Below are positions 30,043 to 44,936 of a DNA stretch of 64,000 nucleotides, in pieces (within the stretch, counting starts at the first letter, position 1; every line of letters begins with the position of its first letter). The stretch lies in assembly GCA_963808235.1 (NCBI GenBank), contig CAWEEQ010000004.1:1568001-1632000 (forward strand), written 5' to 3'. The stretch is from an uncultured delta proteobacterium (GTDB taxonomy: Bacteria; Desulfobacterota; Binatia; Binatales; Binataceae). The position numbers and the translations under genes were made by a program. Below the pieces are notes generated by a model, which worked only from the letters and a program-made list of their open reading frames with translations, ran no database searches and had not been told where the DNA came from.

Positions 30043-31572
30043 CTAGTTCGAGTTCTTCGGCGGCAGATCCCTAAGCGACGTCGCCACGAACCACACATGA
30101 CCAAACGGATCTTCGATTCCTCCGCATCGATCGCCCCAGTCCTTGTCCGCCAGCGGATCGATCACTTTCGCGCCGGCTTCGATCGCGCGCTTCACGACAT
30201 CGTCCACATTCGCGACGTGTACATAAAGATGCACCGGCGAGCCGCCGTACGAGTGCGGCGCGCGCGACAAGTCTCTCGAATCACTCTCGACGATATGGCG
30301 CGCGGTCGGATCCGAAAGCATGACCATCGTATCGCCGATCTTTAACTGCGCGTGACTTACAATCCCATCCTCATCAATTTCGCGATGCAACTCGGTCGCG
30401 CCGAATACCTGCTTGTAAAAATCCGCCGCCCGACCCGCACCCTCGACATACATGAACGGCATGATTCCGCGCCGCGCCACCGTAATCGGCTCGTCGGTCG
30501 CCTTGGATTGTTTCGCGACTTCCGCAACTCGAGGATCATCTGCCATCGAGATCTCCGAAGTCTCGGTCGCCGTCCCGTACAGCATCGATACCGATTTCCG
30601 CGCGAGCTGCCGATGCCACAGTCCCTGCGGGCACACGAACGCCGATCCCGCGCGGATCGTTTCGTGAACCGGCCCGTCGTCGGTCAATACCGTCACCTCG
30701 ACTTCGCCGTCGAGTGCGTAGAGCAACTCGTCGCCGTCCGGATGACGCTCCCACGGCGTCAGCCCCGAGTAACTCATCACGCCGAGCGACAAGTTATCGA
30801 GCTTCGCGACTGTGCGCACCGCCGCGTCAGCTTCCTCTCCGGTAGTGCTCGCGGTGATATTGAGATGCGGCACCTCGCGCAGCGCCGCGCGCAGATCATG
30901 CACCTCGAGGCGTGGCGCGCGCTTCCGCCCGCCTTTCGCCCGAAATTTTCCCTCACGGCGAGGATCTTTCCGCGAGTTCTCGGTCCCCTCGCCCGGCGTC
31001 AGGTAAAGCGCCGCGATCGCCGGCTGCGGGATCGTCTGATGCCAGAGTCCCTGCGGACAGACAAAAAGCGAACCCTCGCGCACCTTCGATCGAACCGGCC
31101 CGCCATCGGTCAGCGTTAGTATTTCCGCCGCCCCTTCGACGACGTAGATCATCTCGTCGCCGCCCGGATGACGCTCCCAACTGGCACCCGTCGCGCGCGA
31201 TACCACCAGCGTGGTGCGGTTCGCCTGCGCAAGGAACTTCATCGACCTATCAGGCAGTCCGACCAGCGCCGCGCGCACGTCATGCGCGACGAGTTGCGGT
31301 TCGTCCGCCATCTCTTTTATCCGCGCGTCAATATCCTCGTGAGTTAATAGCGGCTTGCCGCCAACCGGCTTCGACGCTACCGCCGGAACGCTCGACGCAA
31401 GCTCCGCCTTCAGACTCGATTTGAACTCCGCGCGCGGCATCTCGCGAAGCTCGCCCGCAATTCGAAGTATCGCCCGAAGGCGCGGGTCGAGAGATCGAAG
31501 CGGCGCGTCCGGCCTGGCCATGATCGCCTCCACCGCCTCGTCGAGTTGATCGATTAATTTCCCCTTAGCCAT
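30043..31572 (-). CDS. Putative anti-sigma-like N-terminus + two cupin domains + VOC domain fusion
   Basis: Repeated 'WERHPxGDE..VCPQGLWH' cupin motifs; C-terminal 'WGDRCGGIEDPFGHVW'. Confidence 0.8.
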   Translation of the reverse strand: MAKGKLIDQLDEAVEAIMARPDAPLRSLDPRLRAILRIAGELREMPRAEFKSSLKAELASSVPAVASKPVGGKPLLTHEDIDARIKEMADEPQLVAHDVRAALVGLPDRSMKFLAQANRTTLVVSRATGASWERHPGGDEMIYVVEGAAEILTLTDGGPVRSKVREGSLFVCPQGLWHQTIPQPAIAALYLTPGEGTENSRKDPRREGKFRAKGGRKRAPRLEVHDLRAALREVPHLNITASTTGEEADAAVRTVAKLDNLSLGVMSYSGLTPWERHPDGDELLYALDGEVEVTVLTDDGPVHETIRAGSAFVCPQGLWHRQLARKSVSMLYGTATETSEISMADDPRVAEVAKQSKATDEPITVARRGIMPFMYVEGAGRAADFYKQVFGATELHREIDEDGIVSHAQLKIGDTMVMLSDPTARHIVESDSRDLSRAPHSYGGSPVHLYVHVANVDDVVKRAIEAGAKVIDPLADKDWGDRCGGIEDPFGHVWFVATSLRDLPPKNSN

Positions 31573-32191
31573 TCGTATCACCTAACCGCACCCGCAAATT
31601 CTGCAGGCCGCGGAATTGAAGCTGCTTTATCGCTCCCTCCGTCCGCTTGAGCGCCGTCGCGATTTCGCGAATCGATTTCTGCTCCGTAAATCGCATCACG
31701 ATTACCCGCGATTGATCGATCGGAAGCCGCTCGACCAGCTTGAACAGCCGCGCGCGCCGTTCGATCTCGTCGAAGTCGGGCCCATGCTCCCCTCGATCGG
31801 GCAGATCCTCGACTTCGACTTCATTTGCGATCCGACGATCCGTGGACTTCGAACGATCGACGATCGCATTTGCCGCGATTCGATATAGCCACGCCGAAAA
31901 CGGCGCCCCGCGCCATTCGAAACGCGCGAGGTTCTTGAGCGCACTGTGAAATACGTCGGCGGTGAGATCCTGCGCGACATCCCGATCGCGAACCCGTCGC
32001 GCGATATACGCGTACACCCGCTCGAAGTTGTTCTCGTACAGCTCCGCGAATCGACTCCGATCGCGCTGCGCCGCCTCGATCAACTCCCGCTCCGCACCGT
32101 CGGGCGCGCACTTCGCACTCCGCACGGACGTCTTCAACGCCACGGATTCCGATTCTCGCCGCTCGGGCTTCAATGCGGGATCTCCAGACAC
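31565..32191 (-). CDS. ECF sigma-70 factor
   Basis: 'AQDLTADVF', 'FSAWLYRIAAN', region 4 'SIREIATALKRTEGAIKQLQFRG'. Confidence 0.93.
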   Translation of the reverse strand: MSGDPALKPERRESESVALKTSVRSAKCAPDGAERELIEAAQRDRSRFAELYENNFERVYAYIARRVRDRDVAQDLTADVFHSALKNLARFEWRGAPFSAWLYRIAANAIVDRSKSTDRRIANEVEVEDLPDRGEHGPDFDEIERRARLFKLVERLPIDQSRVIVMRFTEQKSIREIATALKRTEGAIKQLQFRGLQNLRVRLGDTNG

Positions 32192-35678: not shown

Positions 35679-36300
35679 TGTCATTCTAGAGCGAAGCGAA
35701 AGCCTGCCCTGAGCGAAGCCGAACGGGAATCCCGATTCCTTTTCCGAGATCGTCCCCCTCCGTCATCCTGAACGCCGCCTATGTCATCCTGACCGAAGCC
35801 AGCAACGCGGCGCAGTGGAACTGGCTTCTGGCCTCCGGACAGCTTCGCGCCAGCGAAGCCGGTTCCGGTTTCGAGTCGCCGCGTCCAGTCGTGCACCCTG
35901 AGTATTCGCGAAGAGCCTGCCCCGAGTATTCCCGAGGGGGCGAAGCGATGCTCCTTGTTCTTCTTCAGCTCCTCATCAGAAATTCCCTCCCACCAGTTAG
36001 GATGTCGCGTTCCGCGCCACTTCTTAGCCAAGAGCTAGTGGCACGGGCGTCCCTGCCCGTGATCGATCGCGTTCCGCGCCACTTGTTATTCGCCTCTCCC
36101 GCTTAGTCGCGGGAGAGGCCGCGCCTTCGGCGCGGGTGAGGGTGCTTTTTCACGGGAGAGGCGGCCGGTCGCTTCCGCGGTCGGTAGGTGAGGGTGCAGC
36201 CGACCCAAGCAACCCGCCCAACAACGCACACGCCATCCTATCTCTGTCATTCTAGAGCGCAGCGAAAGCCTGCCCTGAGCGAAGCCGAACGGGAATCCCG
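35679..36300. repeat. Cluster of REP-like palindromes with a 56-bp direct repeat (35679-35734 and 36245-36300)
   Basis: TGTCATTCTAGAGCG(A/C)AGCGAAAGCCTGCCCTGAGCGAAGCCGAACGGGAATCCCG twice, one mismatch; GTGGCACGGGCGTCCCTGCCCGTG hairpin; GGGAGAGG/GGTGAGGG units. Confidence 0.8.
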
Positions 36301-36368
36301 GATCTTTATTCCATGATCTCGGCGCTACGCGCCTGCTAGAAGTTTGAGTGAAGATTAAGCACAGCTCA

Positions 36369-39041
36369 CTAGGGTTCACGCAATTTGAGTTTTAGTTGCG
36401 GGCTGTGCGAATCGGGAGACTCAGAACGCGTAAACTCGGAGCGCAATGAGATGACTCCGCGAATCCTGGATCTCTCTCTAACGAGCTGCACACCGAGTTC
36501 AAATTCCTTTGCAGTGCCTTCGCTCAGAGGCATCTCGAATATATAGGATTGACGGCCGCTCTCGTCGAGTTGGTTCACCGGCAATTCGAACGTGATCAAC
36601 TTTTCCACTTCGTGGTCGGATGGGTACCGCAGATCAGGGCGACGATACAACTGATCGCTGGGAAGCTGTTGAGGGTTCGAAATAACAGCGGCAGGCTGAC
36701 CACGCGTCTTTAAATCTAGCCTGCTAGATTTACCCGAGAGCTGCTCCTTCCGAAGAGAGTGCAGAGTTGCGGTTTTTACGAGCATCAATCTCTTGGTAAA
36801 CCCGCCCCGGCGTCGTAACTTCTTTCTGCGCTCAACTTCTAGCTCTGACACAGAAGAGTCTATTACTTTGATCAAGGCCAAGACGACCTCTTGCAGATCC
36901 GCCAGTTCAGAGACGACATCTGCGCCAGATCGAGCGTCTAGTGCCTCATACGCTTCCTCAACGAGCTTTCGTCTAAGAGCGAGGACTAGCGCTTCGCCTT
37001 TCAGCTCAATACTCTCTGCTCTTTCGCCGCGGCCTTCGATCTGCCTTGGAATCAGGTCGCGCACAATCTTATTATACTCGACAACGTCCTCGTCCACCCC
37101 AAACAGGTCAACACATTCCACGTCGGCTCCTAGTCGTTGTAGGATGTAGTAGGCGTGCGACAAGATGCCACCAGCGAGTTCGATTACAAATCTCTTTTCC
37201 GATGCGAGCTTCCCGAGCTCTTCAGCAAAACTGCGATTTCTGATTAGTTCAGGATCGACCGGTTCGACTATAACTCGTTCGATCCTTTTTCCACTGTATA
37301 GTGCGTTCTTGAAGTCCGTCCAGTCTTTACTAGTTCCAATTCTATGGTCGCCCGCAGAGCGATATTTGTGCCGAGGCGCCGCGGCCTTGAGGACTCCAGA
37401 TAATTCTGACTTCTGGTGATACCAAGGCAAGATAGCATGCGGGCTTATCTCGCGCTGATTGTCCAAGAACCACATGACACTCACTGGGTGCTGTTCTCTC
37501 TCGGCAATTCGCCTTGTTGTTTCAGCGATCTCGAAGAGCCAGTCTTCCTTCGTTACGCTTTTACCCCAGTCGTACGGAGGCTTTGTAAAATGTGAACGCC
37601 ATTTGCCATCCTCATCAGATGCAATGAAAAGGCCTTTATATCGTAAGCGCTTCCTATATGTATATCTTCTCTTTCGAAGAGACCGGCTGAAATTGATCTT
37701 AGTCTCCTTCGTGTCGATTTCGAATGTGTCGTGGGAAAACCAATAGAGACCTTCAGGAAGACCCCATAGCGCCTCTATTCTGACAATGCGATTACCGGGC
37801 TCCGCGCGTGCCCACGCAGAGGCGACCGACGGGATGAAGTGATGCGCGATCAAGCACACGCCTGAAGTCCAGAGGTCATTCTGCTGAATCTTCCAGCTAA
37901 AGTCTCCGAGAAGCCATTCCGTTGCTTGACTGGAAGACCTAAGATCGTCACTTCGCGGCAACATCTCTCGCTTGTTCTGAGGGATCGCCTCGCCGTCAGT
38001 ACGTATTACCAGAGGCCGTTTTGTAAGCGCTTCCAAATCACCGAGACATGCAGAAGGCACAACTCCCTCGCGGATAGATTTCAGAACCGCCGCATCGTCG
38101 AGCACATAAAAGACCGGCATCGCGTAACCGAGACTCCTGTACATCTTTGCATTGTGCAACTTTCTGTAGCGATCATAGTCACGCGAGTTAGCTTTTCTGA
38201 ACACCCGAAAAAGATCGCCCTCGATCTCAGGTATTCTGCCTTGCAGAAGCGATTTTGGGGCGGTTCCACGACGGTGTTCCTCGGCGTCAGCTTGAACGAT
38301 CATAATGGTGCGGCCGTCCCATACCCATTCGAAGTGAATTCGCGAGGCTAAGGGCGCCGCCCACAACGCCACGCTCTTCAACGAGTTACTGATCCCTGTC
38401 TCAGAGCTGCATGTCAGCAACGAAATTGACCTATTTCCGGCATCTCGCCAGTTTCTTACGGCGATTCGAGCAGTATCTCCGGGCTGAACAGATTCTGGCT
38501 CGATCTCCACGATCCAGTCCCGTCCCTCGTGACTCAATCGCCGGACATTTGAGAGGTGTCCCTTTCGAACCGTAGTGACCGCCTCTTGAATGACCCAGTG
38601 CAATTGCTCTGCATCATTTCGACTTAGATGAGATAGCATCTTCCGAATCTCATCCGCCACGTCGCGGGGCGCGCATCGAGTCGAATCCAAGCGACCTCGT
38701 TGATCCAGCGTCTCTTCAGTTCCGCTAGATCGTACAAACACTTCTTTCTCGGCCCAAAGATCCAACTTTCGCAAACAGTCGTCTAACCATTCTTCAAAAG
38801 ATGAATCGTTTAGCTGCGCCTGCATCGAAGAAGCCGCGACCACGAAGAAACGCGGCACCCAACGTTGGGGCAGGCAGCAAAGGCCATATGCTTTCCAGCC
38901 TATCTGCTTTACGGAAATCTCAGCTGCGTCAAGGAGGATCGGACCCTCTCGCGAGAGACAAAGTACAGAACAAATCGGAACTAGCATGCGGCGAACTCGC
39001 CGCCGCCGTTGCTTCTTATCCTCCTTCTCTTTAGACGCCAC
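36369..39041 (-). CDS. Fusion of PEP-synthase/PPDK-like ATP-grasp domains, phospho-His domain and MazG-like NTP pyrophosphohydrolase (COG4997-like)
   Basis: IGWKAYGL, VRSSGTEE, WVIQE, IRTD, IEALWGLPEGL, GGILSHA; then 'YNKIVRDLIP..KLVEEAYE..ELADLQEV..KLRRRGGF'. Confidence 0.8.
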   Translation of the reverse strand: MASKEKEDKKQRRRRVRRMLVPICSVLCLSREGPILLDAAEISVKQIGWKAYGLCCLPQRWVPRFFVVAASSMQAQLNDSSFEEWLDDCLRKLDLWAEKEVFVRSSGTEETLDQRGRLDSTRCAPRDVADEIRKMLSHLSRNDAEQLHWVIQEAVTTVRKGHLSNVRRLSHEGRDWIVEIEPESVQPGDTARIAVRNWRDAGNRSISLLTCSSETGISNSLKSVALWAAPLASRIHFEWVWDGRTIMIVQADAEEHRRGTAPKSLLQGRIPEIEGDLFRVFRKANSRDYDRYRKLHNAKMYRSLGYAMPVFYVLDDAAVLKSIREGVVPSACLGDLEALTKRPLVIRTDGEAIPQNKREMLPRSDDLRSSSQATEWLLGDFSWKIQQNDLWTSGVCLIAHHFIPSVASAWARAEPGNRIVRIEALWGLPEGLYWFSHDTFEIDTKETKINFSRSLRKRRYTYRKRLRYKGLFIASDEDGKWRSHFTKPPYDWGKSVTKEDWLFEIAETTRRIAEREQHPVSVMWFLDNQREISPHAILPWYHQKSELSGVLKAAAPRHKYRSAGDHRIGTSKDWTDFKNALYSGKRIERVIVEPVDPELIRNRSFAEELGKLASEKRFVIELAGGILSHAYYILQRLGADVECVDLFGVDEDVVEYNKIVRDLIPRQIEGRGERAESIELKGEALVLALRRKLVEEAYEALDARSGADVVSELADLQEVVLALIKVIDSSVSELEVERRKKLRRRGGFTKRLMLVKTATLHSLRKEQLSGKSSRLDLKTRGQPAAVISNPQQLPSDQLYRRPDLRYPSDHEVEKLITFELPVNQLDESGRQSYIFEMPLSEGTAKEFELGVQLVRERSRIRGVISLRSEFTRSESPDSHSPQLKLKLREP

Positions 39042-39077: not shown

Positions 39078-39908
39078 TCAGACCCACTTCGGGATGCGAA
39101 GGAGAGACGAGAAGTAGAGGATCTCGGCACCTTTATGAGCCGAGCTAGCCGTATGCATGAGCGCAAGATGTTTACAGCGTATGCCTCTGTACAGTTTTCT
39201 AATTTCATTCACGTCGTCGTAAGACACAATCCAAGGACAGGCGAGCTTTTCAACGCTCTTTCTAACTGCGACGTGATCTTCAGGCTCGTAGTCGTTGAGA
39301 TACAAGTGCCTTCCTGGACGGTAGTAGGGAGGGTCAAGATAGACTAAGGTTTTCCGCGACGAGCGACAATCTTTGAGAACATCGAGAGCATCTCGTTTAG
39401 AAATGAATATCCGGTTCTTAGAGGAGGAAATGCGCGATATCCGCCGCGCCAGTTCGGTTCGGTTAAATCGAGCATCCAGCTTCCACGTTCCTTTTTGCTC
39501 TTTCCCCCCTATCATACCTCCGTTGAGAATCCCGGAATGACTTGTGCGGTTCAAAAAGAACTTCGCGAATCCAAGTGCAAGCGTACCCGACCGTGTACCT
39601 TCCGCGTAGATAGCCTTTTGTCTGTACCACTCGTCTGGTGTGACAGATACCTCTCGGATTAGTTCCAAGAGTTCACGCGTTTTCGTTAATACACTTCGCC
39701 AGAAAGCGTAGACCGCGGAATCGAGATCGTTGAGGTGAATCTCGGTTACGAGGCCGTCGAACAGCAGGCTAAGAGCCAGACTGGCGCCTCCCGCATACGG
39801 TTCTATGTAGATCGGTTCGTCTAGGCGGTTAATTTCGATCACACGTCGGAGGAATGGTGCAATTCTCCACTTACCTCCAGGGTAGCGAAGAGGAGAGGCG
39901 CTTCTCAC
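39078..39908 (-). CDS. DNA adenine methyltransferase (Dam/D12 class)
   Basis: SPLRYPGGK, EPYAGG, NDLD, FFLNRT, YLDPPYY, WIVSYD. Confidence 0.93.
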   Translation of the reverse strand: MRSASPLRYPGGKWRIAPFLRRVIEINRLDEPIYIEPYAGGASLALSLLFDGLVTEIHLNDLDSAVYAFWRSVLTKTRELLELIREVSVTPDEWYRQKAIYAEGTRSGTLALGFAKFFLNRTSHSGILNGGMIGGKEQKGTWKLDARFNRTELARRISRISSSKNRIFISKRDALDVLKDCRSSRKTLVYLDPPYYRPGRHLYLNDYEPEDHVAVRKSVEKLACPWIVSYDDVNEIRKLYRGIRCKHLALMHTASSAHKGAEILYFSSLLRIPKWV

Positions 39909-40531
39909 AGGCTGTCAGCACCGTCCGCGCTAGGTGGCTTAGGTTGTTCGCCTGCTTTTCCCTTTCCACTCATCGTACCGAATAGAATGTCAGCTATCTC
40001 GGTAAGCTTAGCGATGGCGCTATCAGAGAAGTAACCGACCAAAAAAGAGACGGCTACGATCACCGAACAGGATCTAGTCGCGGTCGCGTCGAAAACCCGA
40101 AACAAGCCAGAGGAAATCAGAGCTATCATCGCGAAAGCGAGTCCTCCCGAGATGTGTGGTGTAAAGAAACGCCACAACCTCCGATCGAGATGCCACCATT
40201 GTTTTGCTACGGAATGATAGAGCCACTTGAGATCGAATAGCGTTCCCCCAAGAGTTCCGCCTAGCCAGGCCAAGCCGTACTTTAGGACGGAGCTATACCT
40301 CTGCTGACTGAGGCCCATCCACTTGTTCGGGAGTTCAAGCCAGAGAGCCAGCATAAGAAGAGGTGCAGCAACGAGGAGAACTCCCAAGTATGCAGATTCG
40401 AGCAAGATACCGCGGCGAGCTTCTGGGTCTGAGTACTTGGACTTCCAGTCGAGAGGATTTCGTTTGTCAGTCAGGTCGGCGGGCGCGAAACCAAGGACCT
40501 GCTCCGACTCCGGTGTGTCCGATTTTTTCAG
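39905..40531 (-). CDS. Membrane protein with about 4 TM segments; probable CTG start at 40531 (TTG 40405 in ORF track)
   Basis: 'GGTLGGTLFDLKWLYHSV', 'FLVGYFSDSAIAKL'; frame is open up to a TAA at 40544-40546. Confidence 0.75.
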   Translation of the reverse strand: MKKSDTPESEQVLGFAPADLTDKRNPLDWKSKYSDPEARRGILLESAYLGVLLVAAPLLMLALWLELPNKWMGLSQQRYSSVLKYGLAWLGGTLGGTLFDLKWLYHSVAKQWWHLDRRLWRFFTPHISGGLAFAMIALISSGLFRVFDATATRSCSVIVAVSFLVGYFSDSAIAKLTEIADILFGTMSGKGKAGEQPKPPSADGADSL

Positions 40532-41184
40532 GCCGCAACTCGCTTAAACTCGCCCAACGCATCGAGGTTGGCAGCCCATGTTCTGGCCTGATGGATGGTT
40601 GCCGATACGTTAGATAACTGTGGATGTTCGCGCCAGCTGAATTGATCAGGCAACCCGATTTGTGAAGCGATCGCGCGCCTGAACAACTGACTACCAAACT
40701 CACCGTGGCTAGCAATGCGTCCTAATCCGATCGGTTGTTCAAGATACAGGTAGTCATCGCCCCTGCTATGAGCAGTCTGGCATTCGGCAAGAGAGGCGGG
40801 AGACCAACGGACATCTTTCGGCAAGAATGGCTGAACGGCAGGAAGCAGATCGAACTTCAACGCGACAATGTGCAAGTGCGCATGATCCACTCCACAGCCT
40901 ATCAAGGAATTAGCCTTGCTTGGACCGTGTTCGAAGGCGCAAACCGAGGAGTAGGTTCGCGTCATCTGCGAGACCAGCGCATTCTTTACGTGTTTCGCCT
41001 CGGCGATCAGATCGCTGTCTAACGCACCCAACGAAACAGCATGCTTCTTCGGCAAAACGAGCAACCAACTTTCAACGAGCGCCCCGAGTGACGGTAACAC
41101 AAGAAAATTGGCTGACTCGAAGAGCGGCTCGTTCCAAAACTCGGGCTGTTTCGAGGAAAGATCAATACATATTTTGCATGCCAT
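40528..41184 (-). CDS. HIT-superfamily nucleotide hydrolase/transferase
   Basis: N-terminal CxxC, 'LLVLPKKH', 'FEHG', 'GCGVDHAHLHIV'; SD AGGAGG. Confidence 0.85.
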   Translation of the reverse strand: MACKICIDLSSKQPEFWNEPLFESANFLVLPSLGALVESWLLVLPKKHAVSLGALDSDLIAEAKHVKNALVSQMTRTYSSVCAFEHGPSKANSLIGCGVDHAHLHIVALKFDLLPAVQPFLPKDVRWSPASLAECQTAHSRGDDYLYLEQPIGLGRIASHGEFGSQLFRRAIASQIGLPDQFSWREHPQLSNVSATIHQARTWAANLDALGEFKRVAA

Positions 41185-41329
41185 TGTTTTCGTCCTCCTT
41201 CCTCCTGCCGACCTGATTTTAGGACAGAACTACCTATTTTCAAAGGCCCCTGCGGACAACAAAATTTATGTTTTGTCTAGGGGAGCCCTTTAGGCGGGAG
41301 CGGCCGATTGGCGCTGGGCAACGGGCGTG

Positions 41330-42130
41330 ATTCTCGCCCGTCGGCCCGCACCCTCACCTACCCCCGTCGCTCTGCGACGAGGCCTCCTCTCCCGTAACCT
41401 AACGGGCGAGGTGACAAACCGAAGCCCGGAATGCGGCGCAACAGACAATCGCGCCGGAAAATGTCCCCCACCCTCACCCTCCCCCGACGAACGTGGGAGG
41501 GAATTTGACGAGGGCCCAAATAAAAAGGAGCATCGCTTCGCGGAGATCCTTCGACTTCGCTCAGGATGACAGAAGAAGGCGATCCGCATGGAGGAGAAAC
41601 TGTGTGGGCGAGGGAACCAGCACTCTCCGCCCCTAAACTTCTAACAGGCGCGCCGCGCCGCATCCGATTTTTTTCTCCCACCAGAGGAAGCGCGAAACCC
41701 ACTATGGGTTTCGCATGTCCGGGTCCCGCATCTCTTCTCTTGGCCTCCCCCCAGTCACACTTCAGGCGCGCAGCGCCGCATCCTGTCTTTGTTTAGACGA
41801 ACGGGAAGGTGTGAAAAACGAAACCCGTACGGGGTTTCGTGATTGCTTCGTCCTGCGCGCGCGATACTCGATGGGTGTGTCAAGGTTAACCTTGACACAC
41901 ACGCTCCACTTCTGACCCGTGCGTAGGGCCCGAATCGTGTCTCGTATGGACAGACGGGAAGCAGTGAAAAACGAAAGCAGCGGCCATCGCTCCACGCACC
42001 CGAGGTTCGGCACCCAAGCACGAAACACGGCCGCTTGTTGAAAGTTCTAACAGGCGCAGCGCCGCATCCTGTTTTTGTTTAGACGCAAGGGGAAGCGTGA
42101 AACCTGCGTGAGGTTTCACATATTCTCTCC
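41330..42130. repeat. Dense cluster of REP/MITE-like palindromes
   Basis: Perfect 26-bp palindrome at 41875-41900; three units of CAGGCGC..GCGCCGCATCC plus GAAACC-Nx-GGTTTC hairpin; GAGATCCTTCGACTTCGCTCAGGATGACA at 41543-41571. Confidence 0.8.
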
Positions 42131-42166
42131 CGCTTCCCTTTTGCGCACGCGCGATGCGCGCGACGG

Positions 42167-43537
42167 TCACGCGGCGGCGGGCACCCAGTTGCCGTGGAAG
42201 CCCCAGGGCACTCGATGCTGCAATTTCACGCGTGCTACTGGCTTGCGCGCGAAGTCTTGCGCGTCGAGGACGACCATCTCGCTGCGATTCTGATGCTCGT
42301 CGTACCAGACTGCCAGGATCCATCCGTCGTCTTCGGCGGATTTTGCGGCGCGCGGCACGAACACCGGCTCTCCGGGCATAAAGCCTGCCCCCAGCGCGTG
42401 CGTTTCGAGCTTGTTGGTCTGATAGTCGCGCTTCAGGATCGCATTGAAGGGAGCGTCGGTGTCGAGCGACGAATGTTTCCCGCCGACGAAGTATCCGTAG
42501 CGATGCTTCCTTCCGGCGAGTCGTTCGTCGAGCCGCGGAAACTCGTTGCTGACCTCGTCAATCTGGTTCTGCTTGAGCGAGCCGTCGCGCAAGTTCAGGT
42601 TCCATCGCCACGGCAGCGGCGGATTTCCGCCAAACGTGTTGCCGGTCATGTCGAGCGCCGCCATCCGGCATCCATCGACAATCAGCGATCCGTTTTCCTC
42701 GTACGCATTGAGAAAATGAAACACGTAGAACGCTTCGTCCTGGAACCATTTCACCTCACCGGTCGCGCGATTCATCGCGCCGATTTTGGTCCCATGCTGC
42801 GGCTCCCACATCACGAGCGGCTTTCCCTGCGATGCGTTCTCGATACGGAACACTGACGGACAGACAAAAAAGATCGCGTAGTTATCGGTCGCGATAAAAT
42901 CATGCATCATCGCCGGCAGTCCGGTGTCGATCGCGCGCGACTCGATCATCGTTCCGTCGCGCCCGGCTCGATACCACGTCACGTACGGCGGCATCGCCGA
43001 GTACCCGAAGAACAGAATGTCGCCGGTCGCCGCATCGAACTTCGGATGCGCCGTCATGGGCCCGTTCAGTTTCCCGCCGAAGTCGAACAGGCCGATCGTC
43101 TCGAGCGTCTCGGGCTTCAGCTCATGCGGCAGCCCCGCCTCCCACAGCGCGAGCATCCGATTCGCATAGCCGATGATGTTGGTATTCGCCGCGTTCTTGA
43201 ACGGCGGGATGTTCGGCGGCAACTCGCGCGGCTGCTCGATCAACCCGCCGTAAAGCGCCCGCCCCACTTTCATCTCCGCCTTCAACCCGTCCGTCCGCAC
43301 GTAGCGATTGCGATACGCCGCGCGCCCGTCGCGCAGCATGAACGCATGCACCATCCCGTCCCCGTCGAACCAGTGATACCGCCCCGGCGGATTGAAATGC
43401 GGATTCGGCCCGATTCGATACAGCGCACCGTTGAGTTCACGCGGCAGCTCGCCCTCGATCTCGAGATCATAGGCGTCGCCCTCTTCGCGCCACGGCGCAT
43501 AGTTTCCGCTCAGGAATGGGTTGGTCGAGTCGTACAT
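42167..43537 (-). CDS. Carotenoid oxygenase (RPE65/lignostilbene dioxygenase) family
   Basis: 'RIGPNP..HWFDGDGMVH', Fe ligands TAHPK, MHDF, FHF, GFHG; EFPR; EPVF. Confidence 0.93.
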   Translation of the reverse strand: MYDSTNPFLSGNYAPWREEGDAYDLEIEGELPRELNGALYRIGPNPHFNPPGRYHWFDGDGMVHAFMLRDGRAAYRNRYVRTDGLKAEMKVGRALYGGLIEQPRELPPNIPPFKNAANTNIIGYANRMLALWEAGLPHELKPETLETIGLFDFGGKLNGPMTAHPKFDAATGDILFFGYSAMPPYVTWYRAGRDGTMIESRAIDTGLPAMMHDFIATDNYAIFFVCPSVFRIENASQGKPLVMWEPQHGTKIGAMNRATGEVKWFQDEAFYVFHFLNAYEENGSLIVDGCRMAALDMTGNTFGGNPPLPWRWNLNLRDGSLKQNQIDEVSNEFPRLDERLAGRKHRYGYFVGGKHSSLDTDAPFNAILKRDYQTNKLETHALGAGFMPGEPVFVPRAAKSAEDDGWILAVWYDEHQNRSEMVVLDAQDFARKPVARVKLQHRVPWGFHGNWVPAAA

Positions 43538-43588
43538 TGAAAAACCTCCGGGGTCGCTATATAGTAGAATACACTATTATTGTAATAC

Positions 43589-43605
43589 TTGACTAGACGA
43601 GTCAA
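43589..43605. promoter_or_regulatory. Inverted repeat between divergent genes (possible operator)
   Basis: TTGACT-agacg-AGTCAA in an AT-rich intergenic region. Confidence 0.4.
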
Positions 43606-43671
43606 CCGGTGCCGGTGCGCAATCGGAACGCTGCATTGCGAACTTTCTGACGGCGACTTACGATCTTCGTC

Positions 43672-44205
43672 ATGCTCGCCGATGCGCTTTGGTTCGGGGC
43701 CGGATTGTTTGCGTGGACGTTTGTCGAGTACCTGATTCATGGGGTGCTCGGGCATGCGCATCGGACGGTCGTCAGCCGGATGCACTGGGTGCATCATAGC
43801 GATCCTAGTGCGGTGTTTGCACTGGGGGCATGGATTCCGGTGACAGTGGTGCTGGTCGGCGGGTGGGTGATTTGGGGGGCGGCGCCATCGGTGATCTTGT
43901 TCGGTGGGGTGGCGGCGGGATTTGCCGGTTACGAGTTGATTCATTACCGGATTCATTTTGCGCGGCCGGCTTGCGCGCTGGAAGAGCGGCTGCGGGCGCG
44001 GCATCTGGCGCATCATTTTGCACAGCCCGATGCGATCTTCGGGGTGACCTCGCGGTTTTGGGATGTGGTATTCGGGACCGAGCCTGAAGCGTCGCGCATG
44101 CGGGAGCTGGCGGAGGCTGGTTCCGCGATCGCGCCGCACGAAGGTGCGAGCAATCTTGACCGGATGATTGGCCGGGTGATCGGCCGGAGCATCCCAGCCC
44201 GTTGA
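43672..44205 (+). CDS. Fatty acid hydroxylase/sterol desaturase family
   Basis: His boxes 'EYLIH..GH', 'HWVHH', 'HYRIH', 'HLAHH', 'FGVTS.FWD.VFGT'. Confidence 0.88.
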   Translation: MLADALWFGAGLFAWTFVEYLIHGVLGHAHRTVVSRMHWVHHSDPSAVFALGAWIPVTVVLVGGWVIWGAAPSVILFGGVAAGFAGYELIHYRIHFARPACALEERLRARHLAHHFAQPDAIFGVTSRFWDVVFGTEPEASRMRELAEAGSAIAPHEGASNLDRMIGRVIGRSIPAR

Positions 44206-44227
44206 CACATAGCTCAAGTCGAGCTAT
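44202..44227 (+). promoter_or_regulatory. -35 TTGACA next to a palindromic operator (likely PadR autoregulation)
   Basis: TTGACA at 44202, then ATAGCTC-aagtc-GAGCTAT at 44209-44227. Confidence 0.55.
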
Positions 44228-44324
44228 TGGCTTGATAGGTATGACTCAGGGATCGATCAGGACGCGGACGGCGCCGCTGTTCGCGGGCGGAGCGGCGTTC
44301 GAGATCGAGCAGACGCCGCCGCGG

Positions 44325-44936
44325 ATGGATGTGAAGTTTCCGATCCTGGGGTTTTTGAAGGAGGCGGAAGCGACCGGCTACGATCTGAAGAATCGTTTTC
44401 AGGATCCGGTCGGGTTCTTTTACCGGGTCAGTGACGGATCGATCTATCCGGCGCTCAAGAAGCTTGCGCGCGACGGGCTGGTTACGCTGCGGAGCGAACG
44501 CAACGGGCGCCGGACGCGGAAGGTATATGCAATCACGGCCAGGGGCCGGGAGCATTTTGGACGCATGCTGCGCGAGCCGGCGCAGCCCCTGTTCGTCTTC
44601 GACGAATCGCAGGTGAAGATCTATTTCGCGGACCAGGAACCGGAGATTGCGCTTGAGCATATGGAGCGCTCGCGCCGCGACGATGAAATGCGGACCGCGA
44701 TCCTGGCGCGGATGGTCGGCGATATGCGCCGCGTCGGGGTGAGCCCGGTGCGAATAGTCACGGCCGAACTCGGACGAGCTATCACGAAGGCGAAGGCGCG
44801 CGTGCTGGCCAGGCTTTGCGCGCAATTGAAACGCGAACTACAAGGGAAGCGCCGCGCGAAATCGCCGCTCAAACCGCGCGCTATGGCGACCGTCGGTGTG
44901 GCGGGGAAAATCAATCGGAGCCGGCTCACAGGATAA
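44325..44936 (+). CDS. PadR-family transcriptional regulator
   Basis: 'ILGFL..TGYDL..GSIYPALKKL..RKVYAITARG'. Confidence 0.9.
   Translation: MDVKFPILGFLKEAEATGYDLKNRFQDPVGFFYRVSDGSIYPALKKLARDGLVTLRSERNGRRTRKVYAITARGREHFGRMLREPAQPLFVFDESQVKIYFADQEPEIALEHMERSRRDDEMRTAILARMVGDMRRVGVSPVRIVTAELGRAITKAKARVLARLCAQLKRELQGKRRAKSPLKPRAMATVGVAGKINRSRLTG

Follow-up and report, generated by a model that had tools for sequence, protein, structure and literature searches.

A predicted tandem ATP-grasp protein with a MazG-like module belongs to a conserved, mobile gene cassette linked to a DNA methyltransferase

Introduction

What does a dikinase-like protein act on when the domain in the position of its acceptor site resembles a nucleotide pyrophosphohydrolase, and what would such an enzyme be for? 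The question is raised by a gene at 36369..39041 (minus strand) of a 64-kb stretch of DNA from an uncultured delta proteobacterium of the family Binataceae (contig CAWEEQ010000004.1, positions 1,568,001 to 1,632,000), referred to throughout as the window. The gene is a single open reading frame (ORF) with a GTG start, and its translated product of 890 amino acids (aa) is called here the large protein. All coordinates are window positions, and residue numbers, unless a partner protein is being described, are those of the large protein. An original prediction, made from the letters of the window, had read this product as two tandem ATP-grasp domains of the pyruvate phosphate dikinase (PPDK)/phosphoenolpyruvate (PEP) synthase type, followed by a phosphohistidine domain centered on His629 and a MazG-like domain standing in place of the pyruvate-binding barrel.

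Here, the large protein is analyzed together with its relatives and their gene neighborhoods. The reading that we favor, with a probability of about one half, is that it belongs to an undescribed methylation-linked cassette directed against phages or mobile elements, in which it would serve as an enzyme relaying phosphate from a phosphohistidine to a nucleotide. To our knowledge, the acceptors so far described for phosphohistidine-swivel dikinases are pyruvate, rifampin, glucans and phenols. If the reading is correct, nucleotides held in a MazG fold would be a new acceptor class for these enzymes, and the cassette would be a new nuclease-free, methylation-linked immune system, in which a methyltransferase is coupled to nucleotide chemistry and a membrane protein with no endonuclease. 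The cassette is directly testable because the family has at least 497 representatives, including some in culturable genera.

Family membership and conserved motifs

The large protein is a member of a large family with conserved length. An exhaustive search returned 3,453 cluster representatives (50% clustering) at E ≤ 1e-3 and 497 at E ≤ 1e-30, and a word-indexed search in which 7,999 candidates were scored returned 638 proteins at E ≤ 1e-3. Among the 120 matches listed, lengths range from 713 to 916 aa and no precomputed Pfam domain is recorded. Fused or split forms of the family were not found, nor was a longer relative, and the shorter matches are fragments on contigs of 1–5 kb, with the exception of one 273-aa protein on a 21-kb contig. 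The large protein itself has no significant Pfam match, the best relevant row being PRA-PH with E = 0.32 over residues 688–724, and no match in NCBIfam or PADLOC.

All motif strings quoted in the original prediction are present in the translation. Those of the N-terminal half are IGWKAYGL (residues 47–54), VRSSGTEE (103–110), WVIQE (149–153), IRTD (346–349) and IEALWGLPEGL (422–432), and those of the C-terminal half are GGILSHA (624–630), YNKIVRD (656–662), LVEEAYEALD (693–702), ELAD (712–715) and RGGF (745–748). An alignment of 32 full-length homologues (46–73% identity) reveals invariant residues throughout both halves: K50, R104-S105-S106-G107, E110, R347-T348-G350, W426-G427 and E430-G431 in the first, and G624, H629, K658, R661-D662, E695-E696, E699, D702, E712, D715 and E718 in the second. 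The motifs exceed chance because they are built from residues that do not vary across the 32 homologues.

Domain organization of the large protein

Structure prediction supports the presence of two tandem ATP-grasp domains of the type found in PPDK, PEP synthase and rifampin phosphotransferase (RPH). The AF2 model, computed from the 32-sequence alignment, has a mean predicted local distance difference test (pLDDT) score of 70.3 and is mostly confident over residues ~20–640, whereas residues 644–813 are poorly modeled. Its top matches in the PDB, as ranked by Foldseek, are rifampin phosphotransferase (5hv2, E = 1.5e-7), HpeI (9goj, E = 2.8e-7) and PEP synthase (2ols, E = 4.8e-5), and VIA-align splits the structural match into two separate domains. 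Predicted ATP-grasp domain 1 (38256..38984, minus strand; residues ~20–262) contains the motifs GWKAxGL, VRSSG, HWIVQE and FEWVWDG..IVQAD, and predicted domain 2 (37392..38219, minus strand; residues ~275–550) contains IRTDG, HHFIPS, IExLWGxPEG and HDTFExDT. RPH and HpeI are the closest structural matches of the second domain by both Foldseek and VIA. A profile comparison of the two domains with each other (P = 0.0004) pairs VRSSG with IRTDG and HWIVQE with HHFIPS, which supports an internal duplication. Domain 1 also aligns with the N-terminal region of PPDK (P = 0.0048), where FEWVWDG..IVQAD falls on the PPDK segment ‘DiEFtie..LQtR.’ The large protein would thereby possess the PPDK_N-type ATP-grasp nucleotide-binding domain that characterizes PEP-utilizing and small-molecule dikinases.

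ATP-grasp domain 2 is followed by a segment of ~90 residues that is likely a swivelling phospho-His domain (37092..37364, minus strand; residues ~560–650). The model predicts a strand-helix-strand-helix-strand arrangement in which the second helix begins at GGILSH. The codon of H629 lies at 37155–37157, as originally predicted, within the sequence GGILSHAYY. Variation at this position, which had been named as a point that would speak against the prediction, was not seen: H629 is invariant in 32/32 and in 59/59 homologues. When the segment is compared by hhalign with 12 PEP-utilizer domains that related genomes encode in PPDK, PpsA and enzyme-I-like genes, GGxLSHAYY aligns in register on GGxTSHAA (P = 0.0014, probability 17.6%), and the same comparison with a deeper alignment of 246 sequences gives P = 0.0044.

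Beyond the His segment lies a putative MazG/PRA-PH-like domain of the all-alpha NTP (nucleoside triphosphate) pyrophosphohydrolase superfamily (36762..37079, minus strand; residues ~655–760). Membership of this superfamily is indicated at the level of the family by a Pfam scan of the C-terminal halves of 59 homologues, which finds PRA-PH in 41/59 (best E = 6e-7), MazG-like in 22/59 (best E = 1.1e-7) and MazG in 15/59 (best E = 5.4e-4). A search of the PDB with the family profile gives weak matches (E = 0.36–1.3), eight of nine rows being MazG-type enzymes. KxVRD, EExxE..D and ExxD..E are invariant and RGGF nearly so; that the metal-binding acidic residues are conserved speaks for a functional nucleotide site. 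Helices are predicted at residues 683–700, 706–726 and 731–745 with pLDDT of 39–52. No stand-alone form of this domain was found among the family matches, only fragments on short contigs. By Pfam, which detects neither PPDK_N, PEP-utilizers nor PEP-utilizers_C, the large protein contains no PEP/pyruvate TIM barrel, and no rifampin- or phenol-binding acceptor domain is matched either.

The last ~130 residues of the protein make up a predicted β-rich domain (36432..36659, minus strand; residues ~795–870) that has no known relative, with strands predicted over 804–868. This is the most variable part of the large protein, its mean pairwise distance being 0.78 as against 0.60 for the core. In 25 longer (950–1024 aa) or divergent variants, 23 have no Pfam match and the other two have MazG-type matches only, which lie outside this domain.

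The architecture proposed in the original prediction is thus upheld in part. The tandem ATP-grasp domains agree with the model and with Foldseek, and the MazG-like domain with family-level Pfam matches; its placement in lieu of the pyruvate barrel fits the lack of a PEP-utilizers_C match and the MazG/PRA-PH matches of the region after the histidine. The phospho-His domain is likely, and it goes undetected by PF00391.

A conserved four-gene cassette

The large protein is not encoded alone. We assembled 72 loci from one-genome-per-species GTDB contigs, added the window to give 73, and called and clustered their ORFs. Three clusters accompany the large gene: a methyltransferase (~285 aa) in 66/73 loci, a membrane protein without a family (~206 aa) in 65/73 and a HIT-like protein (~223 aa) in 63/73. 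Outside the cassette genes, no cluster is common to more than five loci, and most of the remaining recurrent clusters consist of shadow ORFs inside cassette genes. The order HIT, membrane, large is nearly fixed, both partners lying directly upstream of the large gene in 61 of the 64 loci that have more than 2.5 kb of upstream DNA (the exceptions are L057, L062 and L066). Meanwhile, the methyltransferase gene occupies several positions. It sits between the membrane-protein and large genes in 22 loci, including the window, adjacent to and upstream of the HIT gene in another 22, adjacent downstream on the opposite strand in 9, and elsewhere in the remainder; in L015 it is replaced by a methyltransferase of another class, N6_N4_Mtase. 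Regular presence combined with exchangeability and positional mobility is the signature of a functional coupling like that of restriction-modification (R-M) systems. A relative on a Caulobacter plasmid, whose large protein is 23% identical, retains homologues of both the HIT protein (hhalign E = 1.5e-28) and the membrane protein (E = 5.2e-30) and adjoins a 618-aa class I S-adenosylmethionine (SAM) methyltransferase. The HIT protein, membrane protein, methyltransferase and large protein therefore constitute a conserved, mobile four-gene cassette linked to a DNA methyltransferase. This context was absent from the original prediction, whose reading of the large protein alone is partly supported and is extended by it.

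In the window, the gene adjoining the large gene (39078..39908, minus strand) encodes a 276-aa protein with the features of a D12-class (Dam-like) N6-adenine DNA methyltransferase. Pfam identifies MethyltransfD12 (PF02086) over residues 9–243 with E = 3.7e-17, and the DPPY and EPYAGG motifs appear in the translation as LDPPYY and EPYAGGAS. Its PADLOC matches are PD-Lambda-5_B (E = 8.5e-109) and MTase_II (E = 2.9e-95), and the adenine methyltransferase 7m6b is matched in the PDB (E = 2e-14).

The product of 40528..41184 (minus strand; 218 aa) carries the signatures of the HIT superfamily: a HAHLHIV triad, accompanied by an N-terminal CxxC and a CwfJ-like C-terminal extension of ~100 aa. The family profile matches HIT proteins in the PDB with E = 5.1e-6 (3l7x) to 3.3e-5 and aligns with CWF19L1 across residues 35–209, and Pfam detects HIT in 28/54 (best E = 2.7e-7) and CwfJ_C_1 in 21/54 family members. 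H103 and H105 are invariant and H101 is nearly so.

The membrane protein (39905..40531, minus strand) has 3–4 predicted transmembrane segments, visible as hydrophobic segments in the family-averaged hydropathy, and the motifs KWLYH..WHxDRRLWR and GYFxDSAxAK; the arginine-rich WHxDRRLWR is conserved in an alignment of 55 sequences. Pfam and PDB profile searches returned no relative. The start of this gene is probably non-canonical, as its invariant residues D23, R25 and Y34 precede the first canonical start, a TTG at 40405. At 40531, a CTG shares bases with the TGA stop of the HIT gene (cCTGA), which suggests translational coupling and a near-cognate start, and locus L001 (78% identical) shows the same 123-nucleotide (nt) gap.

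Two kinds of loci depart from the common arrangement. L057, from a metagenome-assembled genome of Desulfovibrio, is the one well-flanked locus without the HIT, membrane-protein and methyltransferase genes; the gene upstream of its large-protein homologue, at L057:4885-7173, codes for 763 aa and its product matches Pfam PPDK_N (E = 4.7e-15). This possibly represents a different, paralogous pairing. In eight loci (L039, L050, L056, L058, L062, L065, L066 and L069), the large gene is split into 2–3 ORFs, and partner genes are also split in some of them. Decay of a toxic gene was considered for these copies and rejected: seven of the eight loci are from metagenome-assembled genomes, where frameshifts of assembly would look the same as genuine decay.

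Horizontal transfer and genomic context

The cassette is horizontally transferred. It forms a low-GC (guanine plus cytosine) island in the window (0.47–0.55 inside versus ~0.58–0.64 outside), and among 41 genomes belonging to its genus and class, the large gene was found in one, namely that of the window. The family is nonetheless spread over Acidobacteriota, several classes of Proteobacteria, Nitrospirota, Bacillota, Bacteroidota, Planctomycetota, Verrucomicrobiota, Patescibacteria and others, with culturable carriers in Paraburkholderia, Achromobacter, Acinetobacter, Nitrosomonas and Candidimonas. No match to the large protein was found in 50,697 phage records or in a pattern scan of viral contigs, and 72,556 plasmid records gave one distant match, the Caulobacter plasmid.

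Three loci (L064, L046 and L048) share a 956–963-aa protein encoded ~1.2 kb downstream of the cassette. The L064 copy (L064:11790-14678), in which the domains were scanned, contains ArdC-N, zincin-like MPTase-PolyVal and DUF5710 domains, a combination that is a hallmark of conjugative elements.

Genes flanking the cassette were sampled as 130 proteins from 65 loci, scanned with PADLOC and compared with 123 proteins selected in the same way from 40 random regions of five related genomes. PADLOC matches were obtained for 21/130 flanking proteins at E ≤ 1e-5 and for 14/130 at E < 1e-15, as against 8/123 and 3/123 in the control regions, where the three look like housekeeping homologues (Fisher p = 0.018 and 0.010, respectively). 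The strong flank matches comprise Kiwa KwaA and KwaB, a type I restriction endonuclease, Shedu, MzaA, DrmC, HNH, type II methyltransferases and four PD-Lambda-5_A proteins. The enrichment of defense genes in the flanks is real but modest.

Comparison with known systems

Dikinases of the RPH/HpeHI type are composed of ATP-grasp, swivel-His and acceptor domains, according to PMC12167813. RPH-Lm (5fbs, 5hv1) and the two-component HpeHI (9goj) have one ATP-grasp domain, whereas two are predicted in tandem in the large protein, and their acceptor is a rifampin- or phenol-binding domain rather than a MazG/PRA-PH-like one. The His domain of the large protein is also too divergent for PF00391, and its gene, unlike theirs, sits in a cassette with methyltransferase, HIT and membrane-protein genes. 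PPDK and PEP synthase (1dik, 2dik, 1kbl, 2ols) differ by the PEP/pyruvate TIM barrel and by the three Pfam domains that the large protein lacks, and the ordinary PPDK and PpsA of this genome are encoded elsewhere. The likeness to MazG/PRA-PH (HisE) enzymes (7yh5; DR2231, 2yeu) consists of the acidic motifs EExxE...D and ExxD and the family-level Pfam matches. Unlike those enzymes, the domain in the large protein is an internal part of ~100 residues, between a KxVRDKIP segment and KxxRRGGF.

Among defense systems, PD-Lambda-5 shares one component, since the cassette methyltransferase is a close relative of PD-Lambda-5_B. However, the window cassette has no PD-Lambda-5_A, and none of the PD-Lambda-5 models is matched by its HIT, membrane or large protein; by these comparisons the cassette is not PD-Lambda-5. 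The PUA-Calcineurin-HAD system is nuclease-free and nucleotide-targeting and is triggered by Dam-derived N6-methyl-dAMP (m6-dAMP), as stated in a preprint (bioRxiv 10.64898/2026.01.15.699771), which also mentions rare variants with MazG-like effectors and N6-adenine methylases linked ‘independently of restriction enzymes.’ The resemblance lies in methylation-linked nucleotide immunity, here proposed from genes alone, and in the MazG-like module of the rare variants. The two systems have no homologous parts, as no PUA, calcineurin or HAD domain is found in the cassette, and PUA-Calcineurin-HAD relies on host Dam, whereas the cassette brings its own methyltransferase. DefensePredictor places MazG and other nucleotide-modifying domains among its unvalidated predicted defense domains, according to PMC13092281. 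A search of the full-text literature, with subscription journals outside its coverage, found no description of this architecture or cassette. Sequence and model together suggest that the large protein is a dikinase whose acceptor module is new and that the methylase-linked cassette encoding it is new as well.

Proposed mechanism and alternative explanations

By analogy with the mechanism of RPH, HpeHI and PEP synthase, the relay would start at an ATP-grasp domain, whose bound ATP would charge His629 with pyrophosphate or phosphate. The charged His domain would then swing to the MazG-like pocket, which would stand in for the pyruvate or rifampin site, and there a bound nucleotide would be phosphorylated or pyrophosphorylated, or NTP hydrolysis would be gated. 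The predicted acceptor site, a nucleotide pocket of the MazG type, keeps its metal ligands, which makes a nucleotide the most likely acceptor. The remaining roles are more speculative. The nucleotide product, or the depletion of nucleotides, may be the output of the system, and the membrane protein may be its effector or sensor. Members of the HIT superfamily cleave P–N and nucleotidyl bonds, and the HIT protein could therefore reset the product that serves as signal, or the phospho-His. The methyltransferase may mark self DNA, such that the host is spared or that the trigger is derived from the marked DNA.

A bolder version of this mechanism, which we regard as a long shot, makes His629 the center of a nucleotide pyrophosphokinase with a synthetic MazG pocket, the whole acting in abortive infection triggered by m6-dAMP. 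Pyrophosphate from ATP would pass via His629 to a monophosphate to yield a triphosphate or an alarmone-like product. The preferred acceptor would be m6-dAMP, freed as a phage degrades the chromosome marked by the cassette's methyltransferase, and the product would open the membrane protein and lead to abortive infection, while the HIT enzyme would hydrolyze the product and so keep the system silent. A danger signal would thus be written into the host DNA and read back through the phosphohistidine relay. The motivation for this version is that an m6-dAMP-triggered nuclease-free system, PUA-Calcineurin-HAD, is a precedent, as presented in its preprint (bioRxiv 10.64898/2026.01.15.699771).

Several observations weigh against an immune cassette with a phospho-His relay. 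With regard to the enzyme, a PF00391 scan detects the ordinary PPDK and PpsA of the genome and not the large protein, and HMM (hidden Markov model) searches of the PDB with full-length, C-terminal-half and His-domain profiles return no PEP-utilizer, giving only weak or spurious rows such as eS7 (E = 0.012) and synoviolin (E = 0.056). ATP-grasp domain 2 has no sequence match to PPDK_N (hhalign P = 0.25), so either of the two domains may be the one that binds ATP. The MazG match of the window copy is sub-threshold (E = 0.073, 13.9 bits versus a cut-off of 21.3), and the pLDDT of 39–52 in the MazG region is low. With regard to immunity, the HIT, membrane and large proteins match none of 5027 PADLOC models, and a nuclease, a DNA-binding domain or a known sensor domain was detected in none of them. 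The neighbors in the window are ordinary (cupin/glyoxalase, ECF sigma factor, PadR, RPE65 and ABC transporter genes) and form no defense island. Without the PD-Lambda-5_A matches, the enrichment in the flanks becomes 10/126 versus 3/123 (p = 0.084), and the control regions all come from one bacterial class and are not taxonomically matched.

The alternative that survives best, though we consider it unlikely, is that the HIT, membrane and large proteins form the nuclease-free restriction half of an R-M-like system, comparable to BREX, which would act directly on unmethylated DNA without a nucleotide signal. Its action could be a block of replication, or chemical modification or de-adenylation of DNA ends; some HIT enzymes, such as aprataxin, do act on DNA ends. 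In keeping with this idea, the methyltransferase partner is obligatory yet exchangeable and shifts its position, as in R-M modules. Moreover, a PD-Lambda-5_A homologue occurs near the methyltransferase gene in 5/73 loci (beside it in L028, L030, L056 and L071, and ~2 kb away in L031), which means that a complete PD-Lambda-5-like pair neighbors the HIT/membrane/large triad there. These PD-Lambda-5_A-like proteins have no Pfam match, and PD-Lambda-5 is described as a compacted system of restriction-modification and abortive infection in PMC9519451. On the other hand, neither a DNA-binding nor a nuclease domain was detected in the HIT, membrane or large protein. A restriction endonuclease partner was sought with Pfam, PADLOC and PDB profiles, which revealed no nuclease domain, the C-terminal domain of the large protein and the membrane protein being without an assigned fold.

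The variable C-terminal domain could, in such a system, be a specificity domain matched to the methyltransferase. This possibility was rejected, as the two do not co-vary (partial Mantel r = 0.09, a value reached by 83/2000 permutations), which argues against methylase-matched target recognition. Once core divergence is removed, the domain does co-vary with the membrane protein (partial r = 0.45) and the HIT protein (0.37; 0/2000 permutations each). We take this as only a hint that members of the triad touch one another, since common descent inflates the test.

It is also rather improbable, in our view, that the cassette serves nucleotide-pool housekeeping. In that case it would be a metabolic accessory of the methyltransferase and not an immune system, with the large and HIT proteins clearing or recycling N6-methylated or non-canonical (d)NTPs or nucleoside monophosphates that arise from the turnover of methylated DNA. 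The public names of the family point this way: those among the listed matches are ‘nucleoside triphosphate pyrophosphohydrolase’ and ‘house-cleaning noncanonical NTP pyrophosphatase (MazG superfamily).’ Invariance of the catalytic residues in the MazG-like domain points the same way, as does the fact that HIT enzymes are nucleotide hydrolases. However, the conserved membrane protein fits poorly into a cytosolic sanitizing pathway, simple hydrolysis needs neither two ATP-grasp domains nor a His relay, and a housekeeping role agrees badly with a rare, patchy and island-like distribution (1/41 relatives) and with the enrichment of defense genes in the flanks.

Finally, a phosphotransferase for a xenobiotic or antibiotic, in which the MazG-like and C-terminal domains bind a non-nucleotide substrate, would agree with the structural closeness of RPH and HpeI to the second ATP-grasp domain and with the phosphorylation of phenolic compounds by HpeHI-type dikinases described in PMC12167813, but it is very improbable given an acceptor domain of the MazG/PRA-PH nucleotide-binding superfamily with its metal-binding acidic residues kept, and constant partners (a DNA methyltransferase and a HIT nucleotide enzyme) that are unexpected in xenobiotic catabolism or drug resistance.

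Flanking DNA and neighboring genes

The cassette is bordered by repeat-rich DNA. Elements of the flank at 35679..36345 recur in inverted orientation in the flank on the other side, at 41280..41660; the repeats between the flanks comprise the inverted pairs I1–I3, I5, I7, I11–I13 and I16–I18 and the direct repeat D2. One 63-nt unit starts at 35679 and again at 36245 (94% identity), and its 17 genomic matches cluster near C4:2.935 Mb. Another unit of 49 nt is found three times within 41768–42102. The small ORFs at 35681–36031, 36086–36379 and 41290–41589 may not be genes because they lie inside repeats and Pfam matches none of them.

A sigma-70-like promoter match, TTGAAA-16-TAAAAT (41216..41243, minus strand), lies immediately upstream of the HIT gene. 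It is no more than a candidate, as three such sites were found in the region where 3.1 are expected.

Further along the window, the GC skew changes sign at ~42000–44500, from about −0.1 to −0.2 over 14–36 kb to about +0.15 over 44–60 kb, and the cumulative skew is lowest near 43 kb. The orientation of the genes reverses there too, those at 43510–44217 (minus strand) and 44202–44936 (plus strand) being divergent. This switch could mark an origin or terminus of replication, or a mere strand switch. On the other side of the cassette, and unrelated to it, the gene at 30043–31581 (minus strand) encodes a 512-aa protein with two cupin domains and a C-terminal glyoxalase/dioxygenase domain, and it adjoins a gene for an ECF-type sigma factor at 31565–32191.

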